Notes: generated by a model from the letters alone, not told the origin. Positions 19,552-36,044 are shown, counted from the first letter of the stretch. The stretch is DNA of 57,308 nucleotides from a virus (IMGVR_UViG_3300044972_000184:1-57308), one strand, 5' to 3'. Numbers and translations are program-made.

Positions 19552-20333
19552 GCCTTGTCCTTGTACTGCTCAACCATGCGGTCGAAGAACTCTCGACCCT
19601 TCATCTGCACGATATGCTTCGGTACCACGAACTCCCCTTCGTGTGCCATGATCGGCACCGGTGCATCCGGGTTGCCCTTGACCGTGCCCCCCTTCGCCAT
19701 GGACTGCATCTGCATCCCTGCTTGCGGCACGGCTGGGGCCTCAGGCATCTGAGCGCCCCCTTGTATCAACTGCTGTGCGGCCTTGGCTACAGTCAGCATG
19801 ACAACCATCAGACCTTCGTCGTACTCCTCCGGCAGATCGTCCTCTGCGGCGATGCCGTTCTGGATAGCAAAGTTGCGGACGTAGGGATACATGTCTGGGT
19901 TGGACGCCGCCACCTGCGTAAGCTGCACGATCATGTTCAACTCCTGCGGCGTGAGTTCACCGCTCTGGAGTGCCGCCATGATGGCCGCTTGGATTTCCTG
20001 TGCCTGCGCTGGGTTCTGCTGGAGACCCTGCATGATGAGCGTGTCACGCTCCATCGGGTCCATTGGACTATCGTCGGGCTGCGCGCCGAGCGCCATGCCA
20101 CCCATCGGCTGGCCACCGGGACCAACCATACCGCCCTCTTGGTACGAAGGGAGTGGCGACCCCAAACCACCACCAAGGCCGACAGGCGGGGCAGCCATAG
20201 GGGCAGTCGGGGTCGCCGCCGGCATAACGGGTTGACCCGCTGCCGGCATGGAAAGCAGACTAGCAAGGGCGGGCGGCAAATCCAAGCTGTCCGTCGAAAC
20301 TGGCTGCATGTTGGGGTCCATCTGGTTCATCAT
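19548..20333 (-). CDS. Virion-associated protein (YQEGG/MAKGG, HEGEFVVP motifs)
   Basis: Motifs GG.V.G...VPIMAHEGEFVVP typical of phage internal proteins. Confidence 0.55.
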   Translation of the reverse strand: MMNQMDPNMQPVSTDSLDLPPALASLLSMPAAGQPVMPAATPTAPMAAPPVGLGGGLGSPLPSYQEGGMVGPGGQPMGGMALGAQPDDSPMDPMERDTLIMQGLQQNPAQAQEIQAAIMAALQSGELTPQELNMIVQLTQVAASNPDMYPYVRNFAIQNGIAAEDDLPEEYDEGLMVVMLTVAKAAQQLIQGGAQMPEAPAVPQAGMQMQSMAKGGTVKGNPDAPVPIMAHEGEFVVPKHIVQMKGREFFDRMVEQYKDKA

Positions 20334-20334
20334 A

Positions 20335-20682
20335 TCACCCTCGCAACTGAGAGATCAGGGTTTCTACAATAGACCGCAGGCTGGCCACGTCGTTGGCCAA
20401 CGTCTGCACGTCTCTGAGCAGCGCCGAGTAGTCGTTCAGGGTCGGCACGGCCACCCCGCTCACGGCAACACCCGACCCCTGTGCCGATACTCGCTGCATC
20501 TGTTGCGGCGGAACCGCCCGGATGGTGATCGACGCCTTGAGGACTGCCGTACTGGCACCGTCCTTCTCGCCGCGCAACCCGGTCAGCAGGTCCACGTTCT
20601 CCTTGAGGGAGGTCAGGATGCTAGACTGCCACGGAGTGATGTCCGACTGCGGCGGGCTGGGTATGGGGGTGAACCTCGACAT
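20335..20682 (-). CDS. Hypothetical tail-associated protein
   Basis: Coupled ORF; LKENVDLLTG pattern and C-terminal coiled coil. Confidence 0.6.
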   Translation of the reverse strand: MSRFTPIPSPPQSDITPWQSSILTSLKENVDLLTGLRGEKDGASTAVLKASITIRAVPPQQMQRVSAQGSGVAVSGVAVPTLNDYSALLRDVQTLANDVASLRSIVETLISQLRG

Positions 20683-23102
20683 CAGGTTTCTTTCAGGCTC
20701 AACGGTGTTTCGCCAAGGTGGATCGCACGGACACGGATATCACCTTCGACGCTCACTTCAAAGGTGTCCGACAGGTAGCCTGCGGGAAGGCGGAACACAC
20801 CGCTGTTAGACAGGGTGGTCGTGAACAGCAGTTCCTTATCGACCCACATGCGGAACGTGATGTTGTTCAGCGATGACCATGAGGACGCGTCAGCGTCCCA
20901 GTTCAGGTTCGCATCGTTCCACAGTTTGGTGGACGCACCGTAGTCAGCGATGACGCGGGCGGCACCGATGTTCATCATGCGCGGTGTCTTGATAACCTTG
21001 GACTTCCACGACTGCGTCAGCTTCGGCTGGTTGAGCGAATCCCACTCATAGATATCGCCGTTGGTACCGACCACGCCAAAAAGGCGACCGTCGATGGGGT
21101 CGTAGTAGGACGCCGTGAAGTTGAAGTCGATGTTGACGTACTGGCCGCCGATCTGCTGCACAGGCTCGAATATAAACCCGCCGGTGCCGTAGGACGCGAC
21201 ATAGGTATCGCCGTAGAAGTCGCCAGCGATAGTAGACGGATCAAGCTCGGTCTCCCATGTGTCGCTGTCGAAGTTCGCGCGGGTGATGATGGCGGGACCG
21301 GACCCCGGCGAGTAGACAGCGAGACCGTCGTGCGTGGGGTAGACCACGCCGTAGTTCATGGAGACGATACCCTTGCGGTTCAGGCAGGGGTAGAGGACGT
21401 CGATCCGTTGGATACCCATGCCAGCCGCTGGGTCAGCCCCTTGTACGAGATACGGGTACGCTTCGGTCAGGACGAGGATCGCGCCGTTGATGGGTGCCAG
21501 TCCGACGACGTCATGCTGAAAGGTGATGGCATATTCCTCCGGCCATGCGTGCGGCGTGTTAGGCGGCGTCAGGTACAGCTTGTTCCCCACGAAGCCGGCG
21601 AGGATGTTGTTCTGCACAGCGGTCAGACCTTGCAGGTCCGCAGGCGGCGGGTCAGCATCATCTGAGCCGAGGCTGTCTATCAGGTTCAGCGCATCGAAGT
21701 CGTCGATGAAATCATAGTCACCACCGTCACCCCAGTAGCGCGCTGCGGTCGTGGGCGGGTTCTCAGAGATGTCGTGGAACATGGTACCAGCCGCCACAAG
21801 GGTGGTCGGTGTGTTAGTGCCGACGCTGGCGTACGTGAATGTGTAGTCGTCCGGGATGTCGATGACGATCCCACCGGTGACATTGAACGAAGCGTTGGTG
21901 CAGTCCGCGATCTTGAACCGGTTGCCGATACCAAGGTTGTGCGGGAAGACGGTCATCACGGTGGCGACGTCGGTGTCTCGGCGCACACTGGCCACACCGG
22001 TGGGGAACCACAGCGTCTTGAGCCGGAAGTACTCTGATCCCTGCACGGTCGACAGCGTGCGATACAGGCGTATGCCACGTACAAAGTTGTTTCCGTCGGG
22101 CTTAGCAATCGGAAGATTGGAGACGGTGATCGTCACCCCTTCGCGGACATAGATCGTCTCGGTCGGCTCGGAGGCGATGGACTCCTCGTCCCAAGGCGTG
22201 ACCCACGTGTAGACATACGAGCGCGGCGTGATCGGGCTACCAAGGTCGACGGTCCCACCGAAGTAGCTGGTCGTGGACAGCGGCGGACCGGGGCTGAAGT
22301 ACTGGATGGTGGTGGTGTTGATGACGGTGGCCGTCACACCGGTGACGTTGAAACTGAGCAGGCTGAGGCGGACCGTGCCGTTCGATGTCGGTGCGGTCGG
22401 CACAGTGACAGAGAAACTGTCGGTCCCTGTTATGGTCGCCACATACGTGCCGGGGATCGCGTCCCCCGTCGGGAACTCCAGCGTGACCTGAGGCGTGCCG
22501 GTCAGCCCATGGTTGATAACCGAGCAGTTCACCGTCGTGCCGCTGCGGGTATACGTGCCGGACAGGTAGCTGAAACCAGTGACCGTGATGATCGCGTTGG
22601 ACCGCAGGGTATGCGGCGCGGATGTCACCAGCGTAGCGATGTTGTTGGTGTCTCTGGCGTACGACGTGGTTATCGCCGGAGAGAAGGGGGTGACAGTGAT
22701 CGTCGGCTTGGTCGTCGGCAGCGGCAGGCCGAGCAGATAGAAGTTGGCTGGGTATGGACCCGGTCCGGTGAACGCCATCGAGTAGTTGCTGACCTTGGGC
22801 GGTCCGTCACCGGTGTAGAAGAAGCGGCGGTCCGTCGCCCCCGTAGCCGTCACAATCGCTATGTCGACATCGGTGGTCCATGATAGCCAGCGGTTGCCGC
22901 CCTGCTCATCCTTGAACGCATAGAGTGTCTTGATGTCACCGGTGATGCCAGCGTTACCGACGATGACCGGACTGGGGAACGGGTCGAGGTCGCCTGAGAC
23001 CATCTTCGCGTTGCGCGCGATCTGACCAGCCGTCTCCGGCAGGAGTTCCGGCGATACCTTCGGCAAGATACCGAAGAAGGTCGTGATCTTTACAGCGGAC
23101 AT
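20682..23102 (-). CDS. Tail nozzle / tubular protein B-like (stabilisation protein) with inserted beta-sandwich domains
   Basis: 806 aa; F.GI.P..SPELLP..AGQ.A.N, YVYTWV..WDEES, P.AWP..Y, WKSK motifs of podovirus nozzles. Confidence 0.75.
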   Translation of the reverse strand: MSAVKITTFFGILPKVSPELLPETAGQIARNAKMVSGDLDPFPSPVIVGNAGITGDIKTLYAFKDEQGGNRWLSWTTDVDIAIVTATGATDRRFFYTGDGPPKVSNYSMAFTGPGPYPANFYLLGLPLPTTKPTITVTPFSPAITTSYARDTNNIATLVTSAPHTLRSNAIITVTGFSYLSGTYTRSGTTVNCSVINHGLTGTPQVTLEFPTGDAIPGTYVATITGTDSFSVTVPTAPTSNGTVRLSLLSFNVTGVTATVINTTTIQYFSPGPPLSTTSYFGGTVDLGSPITPRSYVYTWVTPWDEESIASEPTETIYVREGVTITVSNLPIAKPDGNNFVRGIRLYRTLSTVQGSEYFRLKTLWFPTGVASVRRDTDVATVMTVFPHNLGIGNRFKIADCTNASFNVTGGIVIDIPDDYTFTYASVGTNTPTTLVAAGTMFHDISENPPTTAARYWGDGGDYDFIDDFDALNLIDSLGSDDADPPPADLQGLTAVQNNILAGFVGNKLYLTPPNTPHAWPEEYAITFQHDVVGLAPINGAILVLTEAYPYLVQGADPAAGMGIQRIDVLYPCLNRKGIVSMNYGVVYPTHDGLAVYSPGSGPAIITRANFDSDTWETELDPSTIAGDFYGDTYVASYGTGGFIFEPVQQIGGQYVNIDFNFTASYYDPIDGRLFGVVGTNGDIYEWDSLNQPKLTQSWKSKVIKTPRMMNIGAARVIADYGASTKLWNDANLNWDADASSWSSLNNITFRMWVDKELLFTTTLSNSGVFRLPAGYLSDTFEVSVEGDIRVRAIHLGETPLSLKET

Positions 23103-23114
23103 GGCGTCTGTGGT

Positions 23115-23345
23115 TTACTCCTTTTTGCGGGGGCAGTCACCACCTTCGCAAACACAGACCCATTGGCTGTTGTGCTTCTCGATCTGGGTAACGGTCTCTG
23201 TCGTGTCAGCCTTACGATCATAAGTGATCGGGGAGGCAATACGACAGTAGTCACCCACGACTCCGGTCGAAGCGGTTACGCAGCCGCTCGTCGCGCTCAG
23301 GATCGGGAGTAGCCACAGCAGCTTCAGCTTTTTCCACGTTGGCAT
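23115..23345 (-). CDS. o-spanin (Rz1-like lipoprotein)
   Basis: Signal peptide with lipobox-like ATSGC; overlaps the i-spanin; paired Cys. Confidence 0.7.
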   Translation of the reverse strand: MPTWKKLKLLWLLPILSATSGCVTASTGVVGDYCRIASPITYDRKADTTETVTQIEKHNSQWVCVCEGGDCPRKKE

Positions 23346-23451
23346 CGAGTTGCTCCTGTGCGTCCTGACGACCCTCCTGCTTTGCCTTGTGGCGGACCCA
23401 CTCGCTGAATAGCAGCGACAGGAAAGACAGGAGGGATGAGAGGAGCTTCAC
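23251..23451 (-). CDS. i-spanin (Rz-like)
   Basis: N-terminal TM helix then charged coiled coil; follows holin. Confidence 0.7.
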   Translation of the reverse strand: MKLLSSLLSFLSLLFSEWVRHKAKQEGRQDAQEQLDANVEKAEAAVATPDPERDERLRNRFDRSRG

Positions 23452-23618
23452 GCCACGGGCTTCTTCGAGGTCACCGACCAGACCGCAACGGCGATAGTGG
23501 CCACAGCACCAGCCAGAGCCTCGACAGTCGAGGCGTCGAGGTAGCCCTTACCGGCGAGGAAGCCACCGACTGCGGCGGCTACGGTGCGGACGAGGCCGAA
23601 GACTTGGTCCTTGTTCAT
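23448..23618 (-). CDS. Small two-TM holin (not in ORF track)
   Basis: MNKDQVFGLVRTVAAAVGGFLAGKGYLDASTVEALAGAVATIAVAVWSVTSKKPVA; coupled to the endolysin stop. Confidence 0.7.
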   Translation of the reverse strand: MNKDQVFGLVRTVAAAVGGFLAGKGYLDASTVEALAGAVATIAVAVWSVTSKKPVA

Positions 23619-24046
23619 GGGTAGGTTTTCCTTTCGAGTTCCATATGCGGTCCGTCGGGGAAACGCTTATGCAACATGTCTGCCGTGATGACAGGCGGGA
23701 GGGCCGACAGAAGACCCCACGTACCACCCCAACGGATTGGGATGTTCAGTTCGAGAGAAGCTGTACGAACAGCCTCAGCGATCTTCAGATAGAGCGGCCA
23801 GTCCCAGCGGACCGATCCGCCGATCCAAGCACCGAGATCGACCGCGTGGCCGGTAAGGTGGCGAGAGTCCATGGTCTTGGATGCGCCAGCTTTGACCAGC
23901 TTCCTTTGTCGTTCCTGAGTACGCAGACCCTCAAGCACGGTGAAGTCCACCTCGCTACGCGAGATGGCCCGATGCACGACAGATACCAGATGGGGGTGGA
24001 CCCCCGTCAGTTTGTCGAGGGATCGCTTACTCAGCTTGAACGGCAT
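23615..24046 (-). CDS. Endolysin, M15 L-Ala-D-Glu peptidase
   Basis: EGLRT..RQ, SRHLTGHAVD, WGG.W, DGPHMEL. Confidence 0.92.
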   Translation of the reverse strand: MPFKLSKRSLDKLTGVHPHLVSVVHRAISRSEVDFTVLEGLRTQERQRKLVKAGASKTMDSRHLTGHAVDLGAWIGGSVRWDWPLYLKIAEAVRTASLELNIPIRWGGTWGLLSALPPVITADMLHKRFPDGPHMELERKTYP

Positions 24047-24047
24047 C

Positions 24048-24173
24048 TCACTTCTTCATAGCGCACTTGCCGGCAGCCTTGCACTTGGCCGGCGACGGGC
24101 ACTTGGCACACGGCTTGAACACCGCGCCACCCTTCTTGTAGGGGGGCATCATTGGCATCTTCTTACCGGGCAT
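24048..24173 (-). CDS. 41-aa basic Cys-rich microprotein
   Basis: MPGKKMPMMPPYKKGG..CAKCPSPAKCKAAGKC; SD-like GGAAG upstream. Confidence 0.55.
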   Translation of the reverse strand: MPGKKMPMMPPYKKGGAVFKPCAKCPSPAKCKAAGKCAMKK

Positions 24174-24456
24174 TGCGATCTTCCTTTCCGTCCAGCTTCT
24201 TGAAGATTGTACCAAGGGTATCATCGACATGCTTGAAGCTGTCTTTGATATCCTGACGCATGTCGCGCATCTCAGTCTTCATCTCTGACAGCGCCTCACG
24301 GAAGTCGTCCTTGCGAGTATACACGGCAGGAAGGCTTATCTCAATATCTCTGAGGTCTTTCCGTAGGTCCCGGACTGCGTCCCATATTGCCTTGAGAATC
24401 CAACTGGCCATCGCCCCGAACGCGGCGAAAGCCCAATTAACAATCGTCTGATCCAC
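24163..24456 (-). CDS. Single-TM coiled-coil protein (holin/antiholin-like)
   Basis: GTG start after GAGGAG; TM helix then coiled coil; upstream of endolysin. Confidence 0.6.
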   Translation of the reverse strand: MDQTIVNWAFAAFGAMASWILKAIWDAVRDLRKDLRDIEISLPAVYTRKDDFREALSEMKTEMRDMRQDIKDSFKHVDDTLGTIFKKLDGKEDRNAR

Positions 24457-24991
24457 CGCCGGCTCCTCGCGTCTCCAGTTGCTGAATCTCATCCATCGTA
24501 TCCAGCAGACACTGGAACGTATCACGAGCAGCGTCGGTAAGGAAACCCTTCAAACGCAGCGCCTTGACGAACGCCTCGGCAGCAGCCGGGTCTTGGAACC
24601 GCACATGGCGGTTGGGCAACGTGCGCCCTGCGTTGGCAAAGCTACGCTCCATCATCTGGCCACCACGGCGGTGAGCACCGACCAGAACATAGGCCGCACC
24701 TGCGGCGCGCTCAGGCGTGTCGAGGGTCGCCGCGAACACGTGAGGGGCCAGCAGTAGGCGCGGCGTCAGCGGCAGCATGTCCACCAGATCGAGCGTCAGT
24801 TCGCCGGCGACCTGCACATAGGGCGGGACCCACTCGTCGATAGCCTTATGGACGACGCGCAGCGCCTCCAGCCAGTCGCACCAGACCTGCTCAGAGACAG
24901 TGCCAGCCGACATGGTCGCACCGATAGGGTGCGCCTCGCACGCATGGTGGAGGTCACGGGTGGACTCCCAGAGGGGCTGCTCCCGCCTCAT
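24437..24991 (-). CDS. Heme oxygenase-like protein
   Basis: L.E.T...H...E proximal-His motif and AYVLVGAHRRGG distal-helix motif. Confidence 0.65.
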   Translation of the reverse strand: MRREQPLWESTRDLHHACEAHPIGATMSAGTVSEQVWCDWLEALRVVHKAIDEWVPPYVQVAGELTLDLVDMLPLTPRLLLAPHVFAATLDTPERAAGAAYVLVGAHRRGGQMMERSFANAGRTLPNRHVRFQDPAAAEAFVKALRLKGFLTDAARDTFQCLLDTMDEIQQLETRGAGGGSDDC

Positions 24992-25401
24992 GCGCCGGAC
25001 GTCAGTGAGTAGGACAGAACGAGTACCCTCGGCGGGTTGGTCGTCCCTCGGCGGCGGAGGCCCATAGTGCGTGTACCGGAATCAAAGCCGCTCCCCGCCG
25101 GTCTGGATTCCGCGACAACATACGTGGACGTCAACGGAGTCCAAATGGTAAACACAGGCGGAGTACTCTGTGTAAAGTCTTCCGATATCTCGTAGTTATC
25201 AGCGAACGATTCGGCAGACGGTACGAGCCAAGTGAACACGGAGAAGGACCCCGGCCCAGTGAACGCCTGCCCGTTACCGTTGTTGTAGAACTGCCAAGAC
25301 ACACTGGCATCGCTCCCCCCTGTGGGAGCTATATCAGACAGAGACGCTGGGATACCGCTCAGTGTCAGGTTCTCTTGGTATGATGCCAGCAGGGCGAACA
25401 T
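24988..25401 (-). CDS. Hypothetical beta-rich tail-fibre-associated protein
   Basis: ATG overlaps the fibre stop (TGATG); 137 aa. Confidence 0.6.
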   Translation of the reverse strand: MFALLASYQENLTLSGIPASLSDIAPTGGSDASVSWQFYNNGNGQAFTGPGSFSVFTWLVPSAESFADNYEISEDFTQSTPPVFTIWTPLTSTYVVAESRPAGSGFDSGTRTMGLRRRGTTNPPRVLVLSYSLTSGA

Positions 25402-26900
25402 CAGTCGACCCCGGTGCCGGAGACAATCGCCTCGTTCGTGGAGATGAACCACAGGGTCGCCATCCCGTAGCGAGGGATTGTCCGTTCGCCAGTGAACGTG
25501 GTGCCCGCAAGACGCAGGGTAACGCCGGTGAACGGGGTCAATGCGGCTGACCCGGTGAAGTTATTATAAACCGTCACCACCGCACCTGTCGGCATAGTGT
25601 TTGTGGGTACCAGAAAACTGGAGCTACCTAGCACAACGACCTTGCCGGCCTCACTCGCCTGCAACGCTGGCGTTGCGCCTGACCGGAACACAGGTTCCAG
25701 AATAGCGCCGGCTATACCCGTTGGACCCGTTGGACCGGCAGCGCCCGTCGGACCGTTGCCGCTAGGACCTGTCGGACCAGTGGGGCCGGGCGAACCCGTA
25801 GGACCGGAAGCCTGCGGACCAGTGGGACCAGTGGGACCAGCGGCAGTGCTTGCTGCACCCGCCGGACCTGTCGGACCTGTGGGGCCGCCGCCGGATATAC
25901 CTTGCGGACCTGTGGGACCCGTCGGGCCGGATGAGCCGGTGGGGCCGCCGCCGCTAGGGCCTGTCGGACCAGTGGGGCCAGCGCCGCCCGAACCCGTCGG
26001 ACCGCCCGGACCTGTAGGACCAGTGGGGCCGGTGCCACCCGAACCCGTCGGACCAGCAGCACCTGTCGGACCAGTAGGACCAAGGCCGCCGGAACCCGTC
26101 GGACCAGCAGCACCTGTCGGACCTGTGGGGCCACCGCCGGATATGCCCTGCGGACCAGTGGGTCCTGTCGGGCCAGCGACCGTGCTTGCATCGCCTTGCG
26201 GACCAGTGGGTCCCGGAGGCCCAACGATCTGGCCGACGTTATCCCACGCAGCGCCGTCCCATACGTAGAGATCACCATCAGCCGTGACGATGTATGCGTC
26301 GTTGACTGTGTTGCCCGTGGAAGGGAGAGCGCCAACAGTGGCTACCTCGCCCTTGAAAATAATGGACGTGCCTTGCAGTCCTTGCGGGCCAGTGGGACCT
26401 GTCGGACCTGCGACAGTCGACCCGGAACCCGCCGGGCCAGTCGGACCGGCTACCGTACTAGCTGCACCGGTGGGACCGGTTGCGCCCGCCGGACCGGTGG
26501 GGCCGACTATCGTGCTTGCTGCACCAGTAGGGCCAGTCGGACCCGTGGGACCGACGATCCTGCCCACGTCATCCCATGCAGCACCATCCCAGACATAGAG
26601 GTTGCCGTTCGCCTGTACAATGTAGGCATCGTTGACGGCGTTACCCGTGGGCGGGAGGTCTCCTACAGTGGCAACGCTACCCTTGAACGTGATCGACACG
26701 CCTTGCGGACCCATCGGACCAACGATGCCGCCGTACGGCAGGCTCAGATATGCCGTGACCCCGTCGCCAATCTTGAACTGATCGGTGTCCGTTTCGAGAA
26801 CAAGTTCACGGTCAGCCAAGATGGGATTGAACGAAGTCCAGCGCGCCAGCGTGTCGCCGCGCAGCGCGAACCCGATGGTGGATGATGGGGTGATCGGCAT
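25401..26900 (-). CDS. Collagen-like tail fibre 2 (Mtd-N-like anchor, GPT repeats)
   Basis: LRGDT.A.W...NP.L..RE...ETDT..FKIGDG N-terminus; long G-P-T triplet tracts. Confidence 0.88.
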
Positions 26901-26905
26901 CAGCT

Positions 26906-27967
26906 TTATGCCTCCAGTTTGGCCCGGTAGAAGGCAAGGTTGTTCTTCAATCGTTCATCAGCAGGCTCAAGCTGGCAAGCCAACTCGCCCTGCTCCACGG
27001 CCTCACTATACTTGTTTACATGAAACGCGGCAATGGCTGCGAGATCATGTGGTTTCGCCCCCCACACAGACGGGTCCATCGTGTAGACCAACGCCTTATC
27101 CTTGATTTCCAGAGCGCGTGAGGCGGCATCGTAACATGTCTGCCAGTCCTGCTTGCGGTAGGCCAGATCGGCCATCTCCACCCACGGTTCTCTGGTGTTC
27201 GGTGCTTCGGCGGATGCTTTGCGGTACCACTCCATCGCGGTATCAGGCTGCCCCAGCTTGTCGTATGCCTGCCCCAGTAGCCGCATGGCGTAGCAGCGTT
27301 CGTTCGGCCAGTTCGCCTGAGGGTTGTCGAGGTACTTAAGCAGCGCGACGATGGCGTCCACCCACTTGCCGTAGAACGTCAGTTCGCGGGCGTAGTAGAA
27401 GGCATTGCGCGGGCAGTGCGGGTCTTCCTTCACCGACAGTTCGAGCAGATCGAGATACTGCCCCCGGCTCTTGGTCGGGTCAGGCTTATGGACAGCCAGC
27501 AACATATCCGTCCGCGCCCACACTTCAGTGATGCGGCCATCGGCGCGAGGGTATTCGTGACACGGGTGGTGCCAGTGGTAGCCGTGGCGCGCGTGGATTT
27601 TCTCGTAGTAGAAGATGATCCCGCAGCCCCAGTCGAACTTGTAGGACAGGCGGGTGGTGTCAGCGTTCCAGACGCGCTCGATCTCCTCACGCCATCCGGG
27701 CTGAAGGACTTCGTCGAGGTCGAGGCTGATGCACACGTCGATGTCACGGGGGAGTAGAGCCAGCGCGGTGTCGCGCGCTTTATCGAAGCGCCATGGCGTG
27801 ATGCAGATGTCATGGACTACAGCGCCATGGGCGCGGGCCTTCTCTACCGTGTTGTCCGTGCTGCCGGTATCCGCGATCAGGATGAGGTCAGCGTCCTTGG
27901 CCGCCTCACAGAACCGCTCGACAAACATCTCCTCGTTCTTGCTGATAGCGTAGACTGCGATCTTCAT
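26906..27967 (-). CDS. GT2 glycosyltransferase with C-terminal TPR repeats
   Basis: ISKNEE, DTGSTD, RFD.AR, LDLDE (DxD), HE; TPR-like helices. Confidence 0.9.
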
Positions 27968-27992
27968 GGTGATTCCGCCTGCTTCTGTGGTG

Positions 27993-28454
27993 TTATGCTG
28001 GCACTTCAGGCCAGAGGATGTTGAAAGGGTCAGGCTGAGCGGTGATATCGCGCAATGCTTGGCGGTACGTCGCCCATTGAGTGGCGTTTACCGGAGCGTC
28101 AGCAACCTGCGTCCAGTCGGAGGCGACCAGCTTCGCATTACGATCAGCACGAACAACGGCCCATTGTGCCTCGACCTTTGCCGCAGCTTCGCCGGCATCT
28201 AGGGCGCTCACGATATAGTTCTGTGTCCACACACCGTCGATCAGCAAGGCCGGTCCATGCTCCCGCTGCTGGATGGCTGGGTCAAAGTAGGGCGGCGTAA
28301 CCAGCTTCAGCTTATGAACACCGAACTGCACGATCTGCTCAGGCGTCAGCTTCGCCACCCGACAGAAGTTGTCATCGTCCCAGCGCGTCGGCTCGACATC
28401 ATGGATATGCCGAACGAATGTGTCGCCATTAGCTTGGACGTAGAACAGGCTCAT
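27993..28454 (-). CDS. Tail fibre assembly chaperone
   Basis: VRADRN..L..SDWTQ..DAP..W..YRQALRDI..Q..P..I.WP. Confidence 0.88.
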   Translation of the reverse strand: MSLFYVQANGDTFVRHIHDVEPTRWDDDNFCRVAKLTPEQIVQFGVHKLKLVTPPYFDPAIQQREHGPALLIDGVWTQNYIVSALDAGEAAAKVEAQWAVVRADRNAKLVASDWTQVADAPVNATQWATYRQALRDITAQPDPFNILWPEVPA

Positions 28455-28756
28455 GCCTCGGCTTCCTTCGCTTTTCGCTTGGCGGTGACGCGCTCTACGG
28501 CTGCTGCGTACTCCGCGTCGTTGTCGATCTGCGACCGCAGTGCCTCAATAACAAGCAAGACATTGAGCATCTGCTTGCGGGTTACATCCAGACGCTCAGA
28601 TACGTTCGCCGCGAACTCGTTATCTACGGCGTTTGCCAACAGATACTCAAAGTTTATGCGGTCGAAATCGTAGTGGAAATACTCCGCTTCGCGGGCATAC
28701 ATTGCGTCTGCGATTACGTCGTATTTGTACTCGGTTGGAAGCTGTGCATACTTCAT
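28451..28756 (-). CDS. Hypothetical protein (fibre module)
   Basis: 101 aa helical ORF between fibre and chaperone. Confidence 0.6.
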   Translation of the reverse strand: MKYAQLPTEYKYDVIADAMYAREAEYFHYDFDRINFEYLLANAVDNEFAANVSERLDVTRKQMLNVLLVIEALRSQIDNDAEYAAAVERVTAKRKAKEAEA

Positions 28757-28774
28757 GAGTATCTAACTCTTTTG

Positions 28775-31054
28775 TTATGGGTTTATTGAGAAGGCCACAC
28801 CGTCGCCCGATGGGGAACCCGATGGCAAAGTCGTCGGGTTGGCATACTTGGTTCCAAACCCAGTGGTTGAGTTCCACGGGTAGGCAGTAATGAAGGGCGA
28901 CGACTGATGCGCAACAGCAATCGCATTACCCGCAATAGAGAACGCGACACTCAAAGCATTACTCGTCGGCAATGTTGCCGGGTCAGCGTATTTTGTGCCA
29001 AGACCGGACGTGGTGAATGGATATACAGTGATTCGCGGCGAAGTGTAATGTGCTATCGCGATACTGTCACCTGCGGGGGAGATCGCTATGCCCTCGGCGT
29101 AGCTCGTCGGCAGTGTCGCCGGGTTGGCATACTTGGTGCCGAACCCGGTGGTTGAGTTCCATGGGTAGACGAAAATAAACGGAGTACCGTTCGATGCTAT
29201 CGCAATGGTGTCACCTGCGGGGGTAAACGCTACGCCTTTGCCGGGATTACCCGGCAACGTCGTTGGGTCAGCGTACTTTGTACCAAAACCGGTGGTGGAG
29301 TTCCACGGGTAGGCCGTAACAAATGGCGAGTTCTGATGCACCACTGCAATGGCGTTGCCTGCGGGAGTGAACGCTACATCGAAACTCCCGAAAGTCGGTA
29401 GTGTCGCCGGGTCAGCATACTTGGTGCCGAACCCAGTAGACGAGTTCCATGGATAGGCTGATACATAGGCAGTGGTAGTATTACTGCCGTTCGCCGTGGC
29501 GATAGCGTCACCTAACGGCGAAAAAGTTACACCGTTAGGCGAAGTCGGCAGTGTTGTCGGGTCAGCGTATTTGGTGCCAAAACCCGCCATGGACCATGGG
29601 TAGACAATGAGTTTGCCGCCTACGACAGCCATTGCATCACCAGACGGGGTAAACGTCACGTCTCGGCCTACCGCTGGGTCCAATGTAGCTGGATTGGCGT
29701 ACTTGGTACCGAAGCCTGCCGCTGACCATGGGTATGCGGTGATGAACGGACTTGACTCGTGCGCTAGGGCGACAACTTCGTTTCTTAACGGCAAGCCTGT
29801 TTGATACAGATAATTTGCCATCCACTTGGTGGCTGTAACCTTAATGCACATCAGCGTGTTGTTTGCTGCCACGACCAGAGGTCCCGTGGTGTTGTTTCCA
29901 AACACCAACGTGTCGTTCGTTATCTTGACGGTGACTAGAACACCGCCGTTCTCCACCGTAAACAGCAAAACCGTGCCGATGGGGAAGGCTACGCTGCCGT
30001 TTGATGGGATGGTGTAAGTGCGGGTGACTGTGTCGCTGGCCGGGTGGAATATCTGCTTGCCCGCATCACCCAGCACAAGCGTGTAGTCTGCTGACCGGCT
30101 GTTCTGCGGGAAACTGACCGCACCGCCCGCCGCTGCGCTAGATACCCACGACGTTCCGTCGCTAGTCAGGACGTTACCTGAAGTGCCGGGAGCGACAGAC
30201 GTATCCCATGCCGTGCCGGTCGAGATGACCACGCCTGCTGCCGGGTAGACTGTGGGGCCGGTCGGGCCAGTCGGCCCTAGGTTGCCAACATCGCCAGTAG
30301 CGCCCGTCGGACCAGTGGGGCCTGCTACCGTTGAAGCGTCACCTGTAGCGCCCGTTGGCCCAGTCGGGCCGGCAACCGTCGAGGCGTCACCCTGCGCGCC
30401 TGTAGGGCCTGTCGGGCCTGCAACTGTGCTTGCGCTGCCGGGAACGCCTGTGGGGCCTGTGGGACCTGCTACAGTGCTTGCCTCGCCCTGCGGACCGGTG
30501 GGACCAACTGGACCAGCGACCGTGCTATCTGCACCCGCAGCGCCGGTCGGACCTGTCGGACCAGTGAGACCTGTCGGACCTGTCGGACCAGCGACCGTGC
30601 TACCTGCACCCGCCGCACCGGTGGGGCCGGTCGGACCCAGATTACCTGTCGGGCCAGTCGGACCCAGATTACCCGTCGGACCGGCTGATCCCGTCGGACC
30701 GGTAGGGCCGACGATCTGGCCGACGTTAGTCCAAGCCGAGCCGGTCCAAGCATACAGATCGCCATCAGCCGTGACGATGTAGGCGTCGTTGACGGCGTTA
30801 CCCGTGGGCGGGAGGTCGCCAACGGTGGAGACAGTTCCCTTGATGTTGATCGACGCGCCTTGCGGTCCAGTCGGACCAACGAGGCCGCCGTAGGGCAGGC
30901 TCAGATAAGGGGTGACACCATCACCGATCTTGAACTTATCGGTGTCGGTTTCCAGCACCAACTCGCGGTCAGCAAGGACCGGGTTGAACGAGGTCCAGCG
31001 CGCCAGCGTGTCGCCGCGCAGGGAAAGCTGGAAGATCGAGGCGCTAATGGTCAC
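28775..31054 (-). CDS. Collagen-like tail fibre 1 with C-terminal 7-repeat beta-propeller
   Basis: Mtd-N-like start, GPT collagen, seven YPW..GFGTKYA(D/N)P.TL repeats. Confidence 0.88.
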
Positions 31055-31305
31055 GGTTGTGCGCTCCCAAGGTCAATAGATGCACCGCCGGTGTAGTCGG
31101 TCTCGGCGTTACCAGCGTCGATCAGCGTCGAGAGAACCGGAGCCAAGGCGATCCACTGCGTGCCTGTGCTGTAGTGCATCAGGTTGTCTTCACCGGCCAC
31201 GACCGCGCCCTCGTAGGCGTTGGTGGGTAGGTCGATGGGCGTTGTGTACCGCAGCGAACGGCCAACGCTACGATCACGACCTGATGCGAACTTCACGCTG
31301 CTCAT
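31051..31305 (-). CDS. Small structural protein
   Basis: ATGA-coupled start at 31305 (84 aa); IDAG/IDLG motifs. Confidence 0.55.
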
Positions 31306-31715
31306 GGGATCACCGTATATTCTTCGCGCTGGTTTAGCACATAGGAGAGACTGGCGGTAGCGCCTTGGAAGTTCTCGCACTTCAGTTGCAGCCTGTCGCC
31401 GGACGGAAGGTTCTGCTTGCCCAGTTCGATCAACGCGAAGTCGTTCGGCGGAATATCCATCTGGTTCAGGATTGTCCACGCCACGTTGCTTGCGTCCAGA
31501 ACTCGGATCGAGAACTGGATGGTGCTTGCTCCGTTGTTGGCCACGATAAGCGAGGTCAGCAGCGCCACCGCCTGCACGGGGCGCGCCGGGTTCGGCCCAT
31601 TCACGGGGATAAGGTAGTTCGGCACATCCAAGATCGTCGTATAGAACGACGGAACCGAAATACGGCTGACGTTGAACAGGTTAAGCGGCGGGCGCGGAGT
31701 GGTGATGGTTGCCAT
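31302..31715 (-). CDS. Small beta-sandwich structural protein
   Basis: GGAGG SD; PLN.F start; L.VAN, IPPND..L..GD.L pattern. Confidence 0.6.
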   Translation of the reverse strand: MATITTPRPPLNLFNVSRISVPSFYTTILDVPNYLIPVNGPNPARPVQAVALLTSLIVANNGASTIQFSIRVLDASNVAWTILNQMDIPPNDFALIELGKQNLPSGDRLQLKCENFQGATASLSYVLNQREEYTVIP

Positions 31716-31718
31716 GAG

Positions 31719-34199
31719 TTAGCCTCCAAGAGCCTGAATGAGTGGCAGCGTGATGTTCTGGACACCGCGAGAGAACGCCTGCCCTTCGACAGTTCCGCGC
31801 TCGAAGTCAACGCGCAGGTCTTCCCCGAGGTAGGTGTCACCCATTTCGGTCGAGAACGTAGCGTAGATACGGCCACCGTTGACCTTGAGGTTGACCAGCG
31901 CCGGATCGCCGGCAAGGCCGGTACCGCGCTGTGAGTAGGGCAGCGAGTTGAAGTTGACGCCGGAGCCGACGTAGCTGAACTGCTGACCCGTGGCCTCAAC
32001 CACCGAGGGGAACCCGAGCCGAATATCCTCGGGATCGTCGATGCTGGTCTTAATCAGGTCAATCAGTGACCTAAGCATGGACTGTGCAGGGCTGATAAGA
32101 GCGCAACGGGCAAGGATGCGGTCGTAGGTGTATTCGTAACTGGCGAGGAAGATCGGCTTCAACGCCGGATCAAAGAAGTACTCAGCGTTCCAATCGAACA
32201 GACCCTTGATGAAGAACTGCGAACCACGGTCTTGACCGGACCGGAGGTCGTCCGCCAGTTCGCGCAGCAGGGTCCGCAGGTCGCGCCGCGTGAGTTCCTC
32301 CTGCTCTATCGTGAACTCCTGCACCTCGACGAACTCATCCGCGAGAAGCGCGTAGACTTCTTCGACGATGATATCGCGCTGCTCAGTGATCGCGTCCGCC
32401 GCAGGGACGTAGAAACCGCGAGGCTCACCCACCGGATCGGGGATGCGGATCGTGTAACGGAACCCCGTCGAGACGAGAGCGTAATCCCCGAAGGTGCTGT
32501 TGCTGTTGGCGACCGTGACCTGCCCGCCGTCGTGGCACCACAGGCCATAGCGCGACCAGTTCGTGAAGACCGACACCAACTGCACGAAGGCGTTGCGGGT
32601 CATCAGGTAGGCGTAGCCGTTCGGGTTGATCGAGGTGAAGCTGTCGATCACGACCGAGCGCAGCGTCGAGGACGGAGCCAGCACTGAGCCGTCCGCGCGC
32701 AGGTTGCCCGCGCCTCTCGGCATCAACGGGTTCCCCGTCTCACGGTCAATCGGCAACGTCATCTGATCGTACGTGAAGTCGTGCAGCATTGAGCAGTCCG
32801 ACACGTACGGAGAGCGGGTGATGTTTGCGCCCGGCTTGAAGACGAAGGCGAAGCCCTTCTCCGGCGGGTAGTCATGCTCGGCCAGTTCCGCCGCGTCATC
32901 GACGTTCCGGTACAGCACACCGGAGACAGTGAAGTACTCCCACTGATCGGTGGCCGCCAGACCGGCGGTGGTGTTATCGTAGCTCGGAGGCGACTCATGC
33001 TGGAGGCCGGTGAACGTGAAGCCGCGCACCTTGCACCCGCTGGTCAGGCGGAACATGTTGTTCTGGCTGAGGCCGTTAGGCAGACGCAGCTTGGTCACGC
33101 GCAGGTCGTACCCGTACAACGCGCAGTTCGGCGGGATGTCAGTATCGGGCTGAACCACGTACTCGCCCGGCTGCACGATGACGATGCCCGGCTGGTTGAG
33201 GGCCGCGAGTTTCACGAGCGCAGCGTTGACCGTGGCGAGAGGTACCGACAAGCTGGTGCCGGTGTTGGCATCGCTACCCGCCATCGTGACGTAGAACGTG
33301 CGGGCTACCGAGTACGGGTCCGTGACACCTGCGCCCGGCGGGATTGTCCCTGCCGGCCATTGGAAGTCGTTCGGAATGACGAGATCATCAGCCGATACCA
33401 CCAGCGGTGTCGGGGTCGGGGTGTCGCGCAGTGCGAGAGTGACGAGGTCGGTCTCATGCCCGATACCGAAGGTGCGGAACCACGGCACAGCATACCGGGC
33501 CGACTGCGGGATGTAGACATCGAACACATCGCCGCCGGGGAAACCCAGCGAGTACGTTGCGGTACGCAGCAGCGAACTCACCAGCAGGGTAGCGTCGGAG
33601 CGAATGACGGCAGTACCGATCTTGTTGCCGTAGCCGTTGTACCAGTCGACGCCGGCGGTGATGCCGTCGTTCGCTGGGTCGCCGCTGTCCTTGAACCGCT
33701 GGTACGCCACGCGGAAGGTGTAGGTCTGGTTAGGCTCCAGCGGGACGCTGTCCAGCATGAAGGCCGATCCGACACCGGCGAAGCGATAGACGTTACCGTT
33801 CAGGCTGGCAGTGACCGAGCCTCCGGACAGAGTGAACCGGCTGGGGGCATCGCCGGGACGGAAGTCGCGGAACGGCTTGTCGTCGCGCGTGGCGTCCTCG
33901 ATGGCTGCCTCGATGTTGCCTACCGTCACCCGCAGTTCGACCAAGCTGCCGGGGTTGAACGACAGCGCCGCCGTCCCCTCCTGCGCGCGGACGACCGTCA
34001 GCGTATCAGTCGACCGGGCCGTAGCCTTGACGATCTCGAACAGGCCGTCAGCCGATACGATGGTGGCGAAGAAGGTGTCGCCCGTGGTCAGGGTGGGGAA
34101 GGCCGCGCCGGTCCCGGTCGACAGAACGATCTGCGTGTCACTGCCGGTGATGGCAGTGCTAAGAAACCCCCGAGCATTGTTCTTGAGTTTAACAACCAT
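31719..34199 (-). CDS. Tailspike with pectate-lyase-like beta-helix
   Basis: N-terminal anchor (NNA..L, EIVK.T.R, V.RAQEGT.A); FYV...GSD.N.G...P.AT...A, PGEY beta-helix cap. Confidence 0.75.
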   Translation of the reverse strand: MVVKLKNNARGFLSTAITGSDTQIVLSTGTGAAFPTLTTGDTFFATIVSADGLFEIVKATARSTDTLTVVRAQEGTAALSFNPGSLVELRVTVGNIEAAIEDATRDDKPFRDFRPGDAPSRFTLSGGSVTASLNGNVYRFAGVGSAFMLDSVPLEPNQTYTFRVAYQRFKDSGDPANDGITAGVDWYNGYGNKIGTAVIRSDATLLVSSLLRTATYSLGFPGGDVFDVYIPQSARYAVPWFRTFGIGHETDLVTLALRDTPTPTPLVVSADDLVIPNDFQWPAGTIPPGAGVTDPYSVARTFYVTMAGSDANTGTSLSVPLATVNAALVKLAALNQPGIVIVQPGEYVVQPDTDIPPNCALYGYDLRVTKLRLPNGLSQNNMFRLTSGCKVRGFTFTGLQHESPPSYDNTTAGLAATDQWEYFTVSGVLYRNVDDAAELAEHDYPPEKGFAFVFKPGANITRSPYVSDCSMLHDFTYDQMTLPIDRETGNPLMPRGAGNLRADGSVLAPSSTLRSVVIDSFTSINPNGYAYLMTRNAFVQLVSVFTNWSRYGLWCHDGGQVTVANSNSTFGDYALVSTGFRYTIRIPDPVGEPRGFYVPAADAITEQRDIIVEEVYALLADEFVEVQEFTIEQEELTRRDLRTLLRELADDLRSGQDRGSQFFIKGLFDWNAEYFFDPALKPIFLASYEYTYDRILARCALISPAQSMLRSLIDLIKTSIDDPEDIRLGFPSVVEATGQQFSYVGSGVNFNSLPYSQRGTGLAGDPALVNLKVNGGRIYATFSTEMGDTYLGEDLRVDFERGTVEGQAFSRGVQNITLPLIQALGG

Positions 34200-34211
34200 C
34201 CGAGGACTCCA

Positions 34212-34976
34212 TCAATCGAAGGGCTGCATACGGGCGTACACAGTTCCACGTGCGTTCCCGATATTAGCGCGGGCACGCCTCTCGGTCACGTGATAAGTGT
34301 ACTGCCGCGCGTGATACGCAGCGAGTTCTCTGTCTTTCCACGCTTGGTTCGGCATAACCAGCAGGTCTTGCAGCGCCCCATGGAAGATGACGTCCTCAAG
34401 CTCGTCGAAGATGTACTCCGGCATACCGCCCGCGTTGCGCTTCGGCTTCAGCGCATAGATAAGTCTCAGCGTGTATGCCTTCTCGTCGTCCGGTGACGGC
34501 AGCACGACGAACTGATCGGGGCCAAGCTGAGTGATGACGCGCGGTTCGCTCGTTTTTTCCAGCGCCTCGTCCGTCAGCGTGAAGGTCGAGCCTGCGTTGA
34601 AGCTGCCCTCGTTGAACTCTTGGTTGTTGAACGTGCCGCCCTCGGTCCAAAGCTGGCTGTAGTCCTCACCGCTGTACAGGTCGGCCCATGCCGGGTAGCG
34701 CCGCAGCGCCTCCTCCAGCGTTACGCGGTCAAGCGGGTAGCCGTTCACCGCCGCATCGAAGACAGCGTGGACATCGGCGTTTGCCGGCTTGCGGTAGAAG
34801 TACTGATGGACCGCAGGCGTCAGGTCGTAGGTCGGCTGGGCGATGCGCCATGCCAGCGTCCGCTCACACACGCGGATAGCCGCGATGCGGATCGCAGACT
34901 CCATGAGCGGCTGCGGGCAACCCGGTACGTTCGGGTTGATGCGCGGGATGAGCGAGGCGAAAGTCCTGTCAGCCAT
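34212..34976 (-). CDS. Head-tail adaptor / tail tubular protein
   Basis: VPGCP..AIR.AAI..CERT..W, ALKP, GAL..L..MP...W. Confidence 0.7.
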   Translation of the reverse strand: MADRTFASLIPRINPNVPGCPQPLMESAIRIAAIRVCERTLAWRIAQPTYDLTPAVHQYFYRKPANADVHAVFDAAVNGYPLDRVTLEEALRRYPAWADLYSGEDYSQLWTEGGTFNNQEFNEGSFNAGSTFTLTDEALEKTSEPRVITQLGPDQFVVLPSPDDEKAYTLRLIYALKPKRNAGGMPEYIFDELEDVIFHGALQDLLVMPNQAWKDRELAAYHARQYTYHVTERRARANIGNARGTVYARMQPFD

Positions 34977-35620
34977 TAGACCACCTGCCTCGGATCAAGC
35001 CCGCCTGCGTCGGTATCAGTGATGGTGCGGGTCTGGAGACCGGCGACCAGCGTCTGGTTGAACGAGTCGAGGAACAGCTTGGCGCGGCCTGTGCTGACAT
35101 GCTCGTCGTCGATGGACTGCGACAGGAACACCGTACCGTCTACCAGTGATGGGAGGTAGGTGTCGCTCAGCAGGTCGATCTCTTGGTTGATCGTGTAGTC
35201 GTCGGGGGCGACTGCATACTCAGTGACCAGCGAGACGCCGTCTGCCGGCGCAGGATAGAGGAAGTAGCTCGTCGGGTTACGGACGTGCCGGACGTAGTTC
35301 ACTGGCTGCCCAGCGGGCGCTGAGCGCCAACCGGGATACGTCTGGTCGAGAGCGTTCTTGTCGACCTCAGTGATAACGTCTCCGCCCTCGACGTTGTACA
35401 CCTCGACAAGACGGGTGGCCTTGGACGGTAGCCGCTGCACAACCGTGTTCGGCGTCGTGGCTACCGTCTCGAAGACCGTGAACAGATCAGGCCGGACCAT
35501 AGCCATTCGCTTCAGTGCCTGATTGACAAACCCCAGCAGTACCGCGTCGGTGTAGCGATACGGAGTCCGGGTGTCCTGCACCAGTGGGCGAACTTGGGCT
35601 ATGATCTCAGCAGGTGTCAC
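34976..35620 (-). CDS. Head-tail adaptor (tubular protein A-like)
   Basis: LVQD...RYT...LL.FVN.A...RPD, FLYPAP. Confidence 0.75.
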   Translation of the reverse strand: MTPAEIIAQVRPLVQDTRTPYRYTDAVLLGFVNQALKRMAMVRPDLFTVFETVATTPNTVVQRLPSKATRLVEVYNVEGGDVITEVDKNALDQTYPGWRSAPAGQPVNYVRHVRNPTSYFLYPAPADGVSLVTEYAVAPDDYTINQEIDLLSDTYLPSLVDGTVFLSQSIDDEHVSTGRAKLFLDSFNQTLVAGLQTRTITDTDAGGLDPRQVV

Positions 35621-35886
35621 TCAGGAAAACCTCGACTGGCTTCGGCTGCCAACTCGGGATCGGTATACACTGGTTGTGGCTGAATGTCAGTAGCCAGATC
35701 GAGACCGGGCTTGGCGACCTTGCGGCGCTTGGCGATACGTGTTTCGACCTCATCGTCGATGAACCGCTCAGGGTACGCAACCTGCTCCGGCACCACTTCG
35801 CAATTCGGATTGCGGGCCAGCATCTCGTTGTAATCATAGATGAAGCCGTCGGCCTTCACCCGGATGTACATCTTCTCACTCATCAC
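35617..35886 (-). CDS. Hypothetical protein
   Basis: Coupled ORF in head operon. Confidence 0.6.
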   Translation of the reverse strand: MMSEKMYIRVKADGFIYDYNEMLARNPNCEVVPEQVAYPERFIDDEVETRIAKRRKVAKPGLDLATDIQPQPVYTDPELAAEASRGFPE

Positions 35887-36044
35887 TTCTTCCTCGCCTT
35901 GCCTGCTTCGCTCAACGCGATAGCAATTGCCTGTTTGCGCGACTTGACGACGGGGGCTTTCTTCGGACCCTTCGGGTCGATCCCGCCATGGAGAGTGCCG
36001 CGCTTAAACTCCCCCATTACCTTGGCGACTTTGTCCTTCGGCAT
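35883..36044 (-). CDS. 53-aa basic protein (DUF6496-like; not in ORF track)
   Basis: KVAKVMGEFKRGTLH..VKSRKQAIAIALSEA. Confidence 0.7.
   Translation of the reverse strand: MPKDKVAKVMGEFKRGTLHGGIDPKGPKKAPVVKSRKQAIAIALSEAGKARKK

Follow-up and report, generated by a model that had tools for sequence, protein, structure and literature searches.

SgtA of C. difficile is a described case of a glycosyltransferase whose gene adjoins that of its collagen-like substrate. According to passages of PMC7157674, SgtA is a protein of 358 aa, with a GT-A domain and C-terminal tetratricopeptide repeats (TPRs); bclA3 follows immediately downstream of the sgtA gene, and the enzyme adds β-O-linked N-acetylglucosamine (GlcNAc) to Thr residues of Gly-Pro-Thr (GPT) repeats, the donor being uridine diphosphate (UDP)-GlcNAc. 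Here we consider a virus that encodes a similar pair. The window, by which we mean the whole stretch of DNA analysed, is the virus record IMGVR_UViG_3300044972_000184, 57,308 bp long, and on its minus strand, at 26906-27967, it encodes a 353-aa glycosyltransferase of the GT2 (GT-A) plus TPR type, between the genes for two collagen-like fibres. Our reading, to which we would give a probability of about 0.7, is that the enzyme O-glycosylates the Thr residues of the GPT repeats of both fibres in the manner of SgtA, with a nucleotide sugar from the host. The original prediction had invoked the SgtA/BclA precedent of a linked GT2-TPR enzyme that O-glycosylates GPT repeats, and the published description bears it out.

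The two systems are alike in enzyme size (358 versus 353 aa), in the order of GT-A domain and TPRs, and in having the enzyme gene beside a GPT-rich collagen gene. They are unlike in that here a virus encodes the pair, and that the presumed acceptors are tail fibres rather than a spore coat protein. The domain border of SgtA is placed near aa 260 in the passages of PMC7157674, whereas the TPR helices of the modelled window enzyme begin at about aa 170.

A second line of work concerns collagens whose Y positions are occupied by Thr instead of hydroxyproline. Passages of PMC11923368 cite the cuticle collagen of a hydrothermal-vent worm and a galactosylated (Gly-Pro-Thr)10, in which glycosylation makes GPT triple-helical, and they describe Ac-(GPT)10-NH2 as a random coil until its threonines are galactosylated; the earlier claim that Thr glycosylation can stabilise hydroxyproline-free collagen agrees with these passages. 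They also state that Lys-Gly-Asp/Glu salt bridges usually hold bacterial and viral collagens together, KGD alone making up 13% of viral triplets, and they point out an anomalously high frequency of TGP triplets among viral collagens, no viral enzyme being named there. Nor do these passages name the enzyme that glycosylates the vent-worm and synthetic collagens, whereas the window encodes a candidate beside its putative substrate.

Phages are also known to decorate their own virions. Mycobacteriophage capsids and tail tubes are glycosylated at subunit C-termini by phage glycosyltransferases (as related in passages of PMC12619734). There, as we propose here, phage-encoded enzymes modify structural proteins of the phage itself; the acceptors differ, in that the window capsid protein is without such a C-terminal tail and the linked genes encode collagen-like fibres.

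The SgtA-BclA3 pair, glycosylated-Thr collagens and mycobacteriophage virion glycosylation are thus already in print. Our literature searches turned up no paper in which glycosylation of collagen-like or tail-fibre proteins is ascribed to an enzyme encoded by a phage. In the passages of PMC10202952 on lake actinophages, glycosyltransferase genes and collagen-like genes are listed separately, and DNA protection or superinfection exclusion is suggested for the former. New here are a minimal and complete podovirus-type case (one enzyme, two paralogous fibres, zero glycan-synthesis genes), a random background for the linkage, a reverse test, an evenly drawn clostridial sample, and stalks that are nearly free of charge. 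Collagen-like tail fibres are common in environmental phages. How do triple helices that have neither hydroxyproline nor salt bridges stay folded? An enzyme conserved beside the fibres makes this question directly testable.

The enzyme and the two fibres

Five open reading frames (ORFs), all on the minus strand, make up the fibre operon: in transcription order, fibre B (28775-31054, 759 aa), a 101-aa ORF (28451-28756), a 153-aa tail-fibre assembly chaperone (27993-28454), the glycosyltransferase, and fibre A (25401-26900, 499 aa). The intergenic gaps in that order are 18, -4, 25 and 5 nt, the start of the chaperone overlapping the stop of the 101-aa ORF by 4 nt. The original prediction had the enzyme co-oriented between two GPT-rich fibres at 25401-31054, with no sugar-pathway genes in the window; its coordinates, strand and GPT counts were confirmed, and the scan of the window ORFs with Pfam and PHROG yielded neither a second glycosyltransferase nor a sugar-nucleotide gene. 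Four other lake-water runs supply contigs that are identical to the window and span 26631-27996 (start of fibre A to the glycosyltransferase) and 27938-29402 (start of the glycosyltransferase, chaperone and 101-aa ORF, into fibre B), and the breaks in those other assemblies fall only within collagen repeats. Because these contigs bridge the junctions, the gene order is not an assembly artefact. We propose that the window holds a minimal fibre-glycosylation module within a late tail-fibre operon.

The fibres are paralogues (BLASTP, 58% identity over 312 columns, E 1e-85). Both match Pfam Mtd_N and many PHROG tail-fibre families, and fibre B also matches Pfam Collagen (E 1.5e-9). By BLASTP likeness they have in common about 115 N-terminal residues (26556-26900 in fibre A, 30710-31054 in fibre B, minus strand), made up of an Mtd_N-like domain, a short collagen run and an insert of about 50 aa, and this module presumably attaches the fibres to the tail. 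The insert, with the pattern SI.FKG.V.TVG.LP.TGN.VNDAYIV...G.LYVWDG..W..VG.IVGP, occurs twice in fibre A (aa ~66-115 and ~178-228), the second time inside the collagen stalk. Fibre A consists of the N-terminal module, a long GPT-rich collagen-like region (aa 117-400, 25701-26552, minus strand) interrupted by the second insert copy at about aa 180-226, and a C-terminal domain of about 100 aa. In fibre B the N-terminal module and ~50-aa beta insert are followed by a GPT-rich stalk (aa 116-268, 30251-30709, minus strand) that holds 43 of the 47 Gly-X-Y triplets of the protein, by a poorly modelled middle (aa 269-423, with a predicted local distance difference test score, pLDDT, below 50), and by a C-terminal propeller; the C-termini of the two fibres are unrelated. 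The propeller (~aa 424-759, 28778-29785, minus strand) was recognised as seven-bladed with AlphaFold2 and Foldseek: its local pLDDT is ~85-90 in a model from a 4-sequence alignment, and the top Foldseek matches are 7-bladed propellers (E 4.6e-17, TMt 0.77). It also has a weak Pfam Lactonase match, a lead from the Atlas and a repeated YPW..GFGTKYA.P.TLP motif. To judge from the model, it is likely the receptor-binding head.

What distinguishes the stalks is their composition. Counted in runs of at least three, Gly-X-Y triplets number 71 in fibre A, of which 42 have Pro as the X residue and 29 have Thr as the Y residue; GPT itself occurs 28 times in those runs and 35 times anywhere in the protein. 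Fibre B has 47 triplets, in which X is Pro 27 times and Y is Thr 27 times, and it contains 24 GPT. There is 1 charged X/Y residue in the stalk of fibre A and there are 5 in that of fibre B, a scarcity that matters because salt bridges usually hold such collagens together. A GPTGPTG-coding pattern has 23 sites in the window, all of them within the fibres (13 in A, 10 in B); it was seen in 1 of 80 random viral control loci totalling 974 kb. Among the structural proteins of the window the GPT arrays are the only repetitive Thr arrays.

The enzyme itself is matched over its full length by phrog_13126 (E 2.8e-102); it also matches Pfam TPR_2 (40.1 bits, cut-off 27). Its lack of a hydrophobic segment (maximum KD19 0.88) and its globular model indicate a soluble protein. 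The AlphaFold2 model, made from an alignment of 69 family members that are 36-61% identical to the window enzyme, has a pLDDT of 98.0 and a predicted template modelling score (pTM) of 0.92; a GT-A domain at about aa 1-165 (pLDDT 97-99) is followed by eleven TPR-type helices from aa 170. The DxD motif, D83-L-D85 (codons at 27713-27721, minus strand; alignments A1 and A2), is invariant in 69/69 sequences, as are the DTGSTD nucleotide-binding loop and E12, D33, G35, S36, D38, R60, D62, R65, H125 and E138. The TPR domain (aa 170-353, 26909-27460, minus strand), delimited by TPR_2, by the modelled helices at 170-352 and by TPR-only structural matches, is proposed to bind an extended collagen-repeat peptide. 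The Pfam family TPR_P4H, the peptide-binding domain of collagen prolyl hydroxylase, was considered and set aside as a weak hint: it matches 11 of the 69 members (best E 4.7e-6), the window enzyme not among them, and generic TPR families match far more.

Solved structures that cover both domains are the best matches. These are the glycosyltransferases SunS (7msp_B, Z 23.1, root-mean-square deviation 2.6 Å over 264 residues; a further match at Z 22.0) and ThuS (7msk_A, Z 21.7 over 308 residues), with a Foldseek E of 1.8e-16 for the enzyme against SunS/ThuS. Matches to the glycosyltransferase domain only score lower and cover residues 1 to ~170 (WrtF, Z 18.7; RmlT, 16.3; TarS, 16.1), and matches to the TPRs only, at Z 16-18, likewise fall below SunS and ThuS. 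Like the window enzyme, SunS and ThuS (PDB 7msn, 7msp, 7msk) are soluble, join a GT-A domain to a helical repeat domain, and have peptide acceptors. The sequence identity is 15-19%, and with 15.6 bits against a cut-off of 350 for the NCBIfam SunS model TIGR04195 the window enzyme is not a member by sequence. Nor is there a Cys-bearing glycocin precursor nearby, the neighbouring 101-aa protein being without Cys. To judge from their entry titles, SunS and ThuS modify Cys rather than Thr. Listeria GmaR, which we take to be a flagellin O-GlcNAc transferase, also combines a GT2 domain with helical repeats (PDB 7x9r, 22ao; sequence E 0.0037, Foldseek E 1.1e-7), the match being weak and confined to part of the window enzyme.

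Linkage of the enzyme family to GPT collagens

Is the pairing of such an enzyme with GPT collagens peculiar to this virus? We examined the best 80, by similarity, of 598 viral stretches that encode a relative, scoring as a GPT collagen any same-strand ORF with at least 9 GPT triplets, and took as control 80 viral loci around an arbitrary 14-mer. A GPT collagen ORF was present in 60/80 of the enzyme-bearing loci and in 1/80 of the controls; for loci of at least 12 kb the figures are 34/34 and 1/40. The control loci are richer in GC (63% versus 48%), which favours spurious Gly/Pro-rich frames, so that the control is conservative. The original prediction had named co-occurrence of GT2-TPR enzymes and GPT fibres as a check on itself, and the association proves to lie far above the measured background. 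In 34 loci fewer than 300 bp separate the collagen ORF from the enzyme gene, and in 26 the distance is 1.1-7.2 kb. Collagen ORFs are confined to the upstream side in 44 loci and to the downstream side in 6, while 10 loci, like the window, have them on both flanks.

One might think that such a linkage simply reflects common descent of whole phages. The enzyme is 68-89% identical across all 80 viral loci, while the tail protein, the internal virion protein and the fibre N-terminus of the window are detectable in 10, 16 and 19 of the 80. When the 56 loci that have sufficient flanking DNA are grouped at 34% gene sharing, 15 backbone clusters result, and 11 of the 15 show the linkage. (Single-linkage clustering on one shared ORF merged nearly all loci, and gene-sharing thresholds were used instead.) PHROG annotation likewise reveals clearly different phage types among the loci, for example the Erf/RecE-bearing L030 and L067. 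Since the enzyme is conserved while the backbones differ, the linkage is not just a matter of whole-phage shared ancestry.

The reverse test starts from the collagen. The sole control locus with a GPT collagen (L239; 836 aa, 49 GPT) belongs to a complete 345-kb virus, G001, in whose genome two homologues of the enzyme stand in tandem, one 45% identical (E 1.8e-94) and the other 34% (E 4.1e-39); these homologues, at 292929-294979, are about 37 kb from the collagen. A control locus with a Thr-less collagen had no homologue, in a record that is only 29% complete. Among cultured phages, all four that have a homologue also have GPTGPTG-coding sites (68 in DSL-LC01, 4 in PaBG, 1 in Lu11 and 5 in Erwinia phage pEa_SNUABM_3), with 0 sites in each for a reversed-pattern control. 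DSL-LC01, whose homologue is the closest of the four (43% identity), is alone in having the collagen genes near the enzyme, 3-6 kb upstream of it. In this Actinomycetia phage (L286) a gene annotated as 'tryptophan halogenase' (10433-12004) lies between the collagen genes and the enzyme, directly upstream of the latter, and genes for a UDP-galactopyranose mutase and a second glycosyltransferase are found 6-8 kb away on the other strand.

The pairing is also seen in cellular genomes. For the best 80 of 160 relatives in one-genome-per-species contigs, with collagens scored within 6 kb, a Ser/Thr-rich collagen ORF was found in 38/80 bacterial loci and an ORF with at least 9 GPT in 32/80. Several of these pairs sit among housekeeping genes and not in prophages: in Intestinimonas massiliensis the neighbours are tgt, queA, trxB and asd, and in a Bacilli metagenome-assembled genome (MAG) they are gatA and gatB; a planctomycete and an actinomycete, the latter near ftsQ, provide further examples. 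In a planctomycete MAG (L095, 5908-10533) the enzyme homologue and its GPT collagen gene are separated by the gene for a Ser/Thr protein kinase. In an evenly drawn sample of the class Clostridia, 399 genomes were scored and 30 had a match at E <= 1e-15; 15 of these 30 loci have a same-strand collagen ORF, and the linkage extends to the 22-29% identity tier. One 4.1-Mb clostridial genome encodes a 361-aa glycosyltransferase directly upstream of a 712-aa ORF with 163 Gly-X-Y triplets and 44 GPT. This glycosyltransferase aligns with the family profile over 341 columns and both domains (hhalign, probability 99.9, E 5.1e-31), and the pair has the arrangement, size and architecture that passages of PMC7157674 describe for sgtA-bclA3. 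Of five bacterial genomes whose homologue has no collagen neighbour, three have GPTGPTG sites at other positions.

The family is large. Of 8,000 candidates from a word-indexed search, 5,470 proteins reach E <= 1e-10, and the 120 matches listed from it are 72-92% identical to the enzyme; when 50%-identity representatives were searched exhaustively, 5,333 clusters scored E <= 0.001, 2,042 of them 1e-10 and 887 of them 1e-30. As a genome-search probe phrog_13126 was dropped as unspecific, for it had matches in 14/14 control genomes. Many of the long representatives are fusions; among the partners are a second or third copy of the same enzyme (as in P0140, 1,040 aa), GT8, GT9, GT1/4, Gly_transf_sug, mannosyl- or rhamnosyl-transferase domains and methyltransferases. 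Fusions with glycosyltransferases and methyltransferases would fit an enzyme that lays the first sugar, which others extend or methylate. In viral locus L011 (1415-3217, 4964-6823) an N-terminal Gly_transf_sug domain is joined to the enzyme and a cytidylyltransferase is encoded downstream, and in L045 (7488-9065) an N-terminal methyltransferase is fused to it.

The probable acceptor of the enzyme

What would the enzyme do in an infected cell? We envisage that the soluble GT-A/TPR enzyme and both collagen-like fibres are produced together in the late phase of infection, and that the TPR domain of the enzyme holds the still-unfolded, extended Gly-Pro-Thr repeats while its DxD- and metal-dependent GT-A domain uses a host UDP-sugar to glycosylate the hydroxyl of the Thr at Y. 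The Ser and Thr residues of AST-type breaks in the stalk would possibly be modified too. The sugars might then replace hydroxyproline or salt bridges, of which the stalks have neither, in stabilising the triple helix, and would also form a glycan coat on the fibres. This scheme builds on the gene order, the domains, the catalytic motif, the fold, the full-length clostridial homology and the linkage of the family to GPT collagens. The choice of a host UDP-sugar as donor has a single basis, namely that the scanned window ORFs include no other glycosyltransferase or sugar-nucleotide gene. If the reading is right, phage virion glycosylation extends from the capsids and tails of mycobacteriophages to the receptor-binding fibres of many lineages.

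Several points weigh against glycosylation of the GPT repeats. No glycan has been observed, and we infer the activity of the enzyme, the fibres as acceptors, the modified residue, the donor sugar and the effect on folding. The likeness to SgtA is known through its published description and through the clostridial 361-aa glycosyltransferase as proxy, not through the SgtA sequence, and the nearest solved enzymes glycosylate Cys residues of small peptides, not collagen. The Glycos_transf_2 score of the window enzyme, 22.8 bits, is just under the cut-off of 23.3; 60 of the 69 family members are matched. The viral loci, being chosen by similarity, are a non-random sample. Twenty of the 80 lack a GPT collagen; 16 of the 20 have less than 3 kb upstream, and L017, L028, L069 and L077 have upstream flanks of 5-8 kb and are still without one. 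No Thr- or Ser-rich collagen ORF is nearby in 42/80 bacterial loci, and among the clostridial loci 13/30 have no collagen ORF and 2 have one on the other strand only. GPTGPTG sites are absent genome-wide in two of the five bacterial genomes mentioned above, both of high GC. In the jumbo phages PaBG, Lu11 and pEa_SNUABM_3 the homologue, 26-34% identical, lies between a DNA ligase and a head protease, 20-140 kb from the few GPT sites; that of PaBG, a Pseudomonas phage, is 34% identical.

A stronger version of the same idea is, we think, rather less probable than not. Could the enzyme be the functional counterpart of prolyl hydroxylase for GPT collagens that are free of hydroxyproline and charge? 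The stalks would then need it to form a triple helix, and since they would have no triple helix unless the enzyme were present, the enzyme would travel with such collagens as a mobile 'collagen maturase' among unrelated phages, giant viruses and bacteria. The glycan coat, which the enzyme would start and which fused glycosyltransferases and methyltransferases would extend in other phages, would help to form the surface that the fibre presents to the host or to defences. We offer this as a tentative suggestion.

The most serious competitor to fibre-repeat glycosylation is that the enzyme is indeed a protein or peptide glycosyltransferase with some other acceptor: another virion protein of the capsid or tail, non-collagen parts of the fibres, or host flagellin or pilin. 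The action of SunS and ThuS on non-collagen peptides, and the weak match to GmaR, fit such a role, as do the roughly half of bacterial homologues that have no collagen neighbour and the jumbo-phage homologues that do not adjoin collagens; the glycosylated capsids and tail tubes of mycobacteriophages (passages of PMC12619734) offer a precedent. A search of the capsid protein and the other structural proteins of the window revealed no Ser/Thr-rich terminal tails, however, and the GPT arrays are the only repetitive Thr arrays on offer. Another acceptor also sits poorly with the enrichment of the family beside GPT collagens (60/80 versus 1/80) and with the fact that the enzyme is conserved while the non-collagen parts of the neighbouring fibres are dissimilar in most loci, the fibre N-terminus being found in 19/80. 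We therefore regard a different protein acceptor as improbable, on the order of one chance in seven.

It is also conceivable, at distinctly longer odds, that the enzyme modifies a glycan of the host envelope (lipopolysaccharide, O-antigen, capsule or teichoic acid), thereby excluding superinfecting phages or preventing readsorption. The label of phrog_13126, 'beta-1,4-glycosyltransferase', filed under 'moron, auxiliary metabolic gene and host takeover', points that way, older records name homologues 'LOS beta-1,4 glucosyltransferase', and such a role, or DNA protection, is proposed for lake actinophage glycosyltransferases in passages of PMC10202952. We consider the PHROG label doubtful, as the linkage data argue against it. 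The enzyme has no membrane segment, in which it is unlike the membrane-embedded Gtr-type serotype-converting glycosyltransferases, and it carries a TPR protein-binding domain; its gene lies between fibre genes in a late structural operon; the polysaccharide enzymes WrtF, TarS and RmlT match more weakly and over the glycosyltransferase domain only; and an envelope role leaves the collagen linkage unexplained. Glycosylation of the GPT repeats, if true, would correct both the PHROG label and the DNA-protection and superinfection roles suggested in the passages of PMC10202952.

Very unlikely, in our view, is glycosylation of the phage DNA against restriction, a role commonly assigned to phage glycosyltransferases (passages of PMC10202952 and PMC12619734). 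The genome does encode an Nmad5 protein, of a kind linked to DNA modification, and this counts against fibre glycosylation; its gene, however, is 21 kb away on the other strand, whereas the glycosyltransferase gene, unlike those of phage DNA glycosyltransferases, is in a tail-fibre operon and not with base-modifying genes in a nucleotide-metabolism module. Neither Pfam nor PHROG detected a hydroxymethylase or a similar gene for base modification, the fold of the protein as a whole resembles that of peptide glycosyltransferases, and bacterial homologues adjoin collagen genes amid housekeeping genes. We give equally little credence to a catalytically dead enzyme whose TPR domain serves as a fibre chaperone or assembly factor, as its place next to the tail-fibre assembly chaperone and the marginal Pfam score might suggest, because the DxD motif, the DTGSTD loop and other residues of the catalytic domain are invariant in 69 sequences and that domain is modelled at pLDDT 97-99.

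The virus, its host and other genes

The lesser genes of the fibre operon can be described briefly. The chaperone matches Phage_tail_APC (62.7 bits, E 3e-17) and phrog_4912. The 101-aa ORF has no family match, and by tblastn it is kept in 3 of the 80 related viral loci (L001, L002 and L015). Shine-Dalgarno-like GGAGG and GAGG motifs stand ahead of fibre A and the chaperone; a scan of 20000-37000 for promoters and terminators gave counts no higher than in shuffled sequence (6 versus 4.4 and 12 versus 10.1). For a 154-aa ORF (24988-25452, minus strand), which overlaps the 3' end of fibre A by 52 nt, we found neither a matching family nor, by tblastn, a counterpart in the related viral loci (0/80), even where the enzyme is 89% identical; this ORF may be spurious, or specific to the C-terminal domain of fibre A.

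The record has direct terminal repeats and is rated 100% complete. Its tailed-phage genes are of the SU10 type: an SU10 adaptor (34976-35620), an SU10 portal (40417-42474), a major head or capsid protein (38177-39106) and a large terminase; further genes encode an internal virion protein of 806 aa and another virion protein of 2,426 aa. Replication genes are those for a family A DNA polymerase, an SNF2 helicase and a DUF927 primase. By its gene content the virus is an SU10-like, podovirus-type lake phage. The minus strand carries nearly all genes from about 44.3 kb down to 8.8 kb, and the fibre operon is inside this block.

A 20-kb part of the window had zero similar records when compared by Megablast with 50,697 phage records, and near-identical DNA is present in lake-water metagenome runs from four other studies. 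The nearest relatives in genome collections are a 56-kb contig in a Burkholderiaceae MAG bin, with an enzyme 79% identical, and a stretch of Quisquiliibacterium transsilvanicum (L116) with an SU10-type adaptor, an 844-aa collagen and an enzyme 71% identical. The trio of adaptor, collagen and enzyme in L116, at 1067-7074, lies within a 636-kb bacterial contig and is possibly a prophage or an integrated relative of the window's phage type. A Burkholderiales host is a reasonable guess, no more, from these sequence relatives.

Some other genes of the window deserve mention. A 215-aa protein (49275-49922, plus strand) matches Pfam Nmad5 (E 2.7e-18); passages of PMC11846954 describe Nmad5 as a DNA-modification enzyme and as a trigger of Tmn defence, and the phage may, from this match, modify its own DNA. 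The early region also encodes an AAA ATPase (50997-51992, plus strand; phrog_1297), and near its gene is that for a DUF2201 protein (53457-54563, plus strand; phrog_1314), with putative metallopeptidase and VWA-like domains. The 2,426-aa ORF (8808-16088, minus strand) closes the structural block; it has no Pfam match, and its C-terminal ~500 residues alone match PHROGs, namely phrog_11358 and phrog_21376, families that carry no function label. Finally, upstream of the large terminase gene, at a distance of about 0.7 kb, lies the gene for an HNH endonuclease (44961-45611, minus strand; HNH_3, phrog_99). The pairing of an HNH endonuclease with a large terminase is often tied to cos-type packaging.

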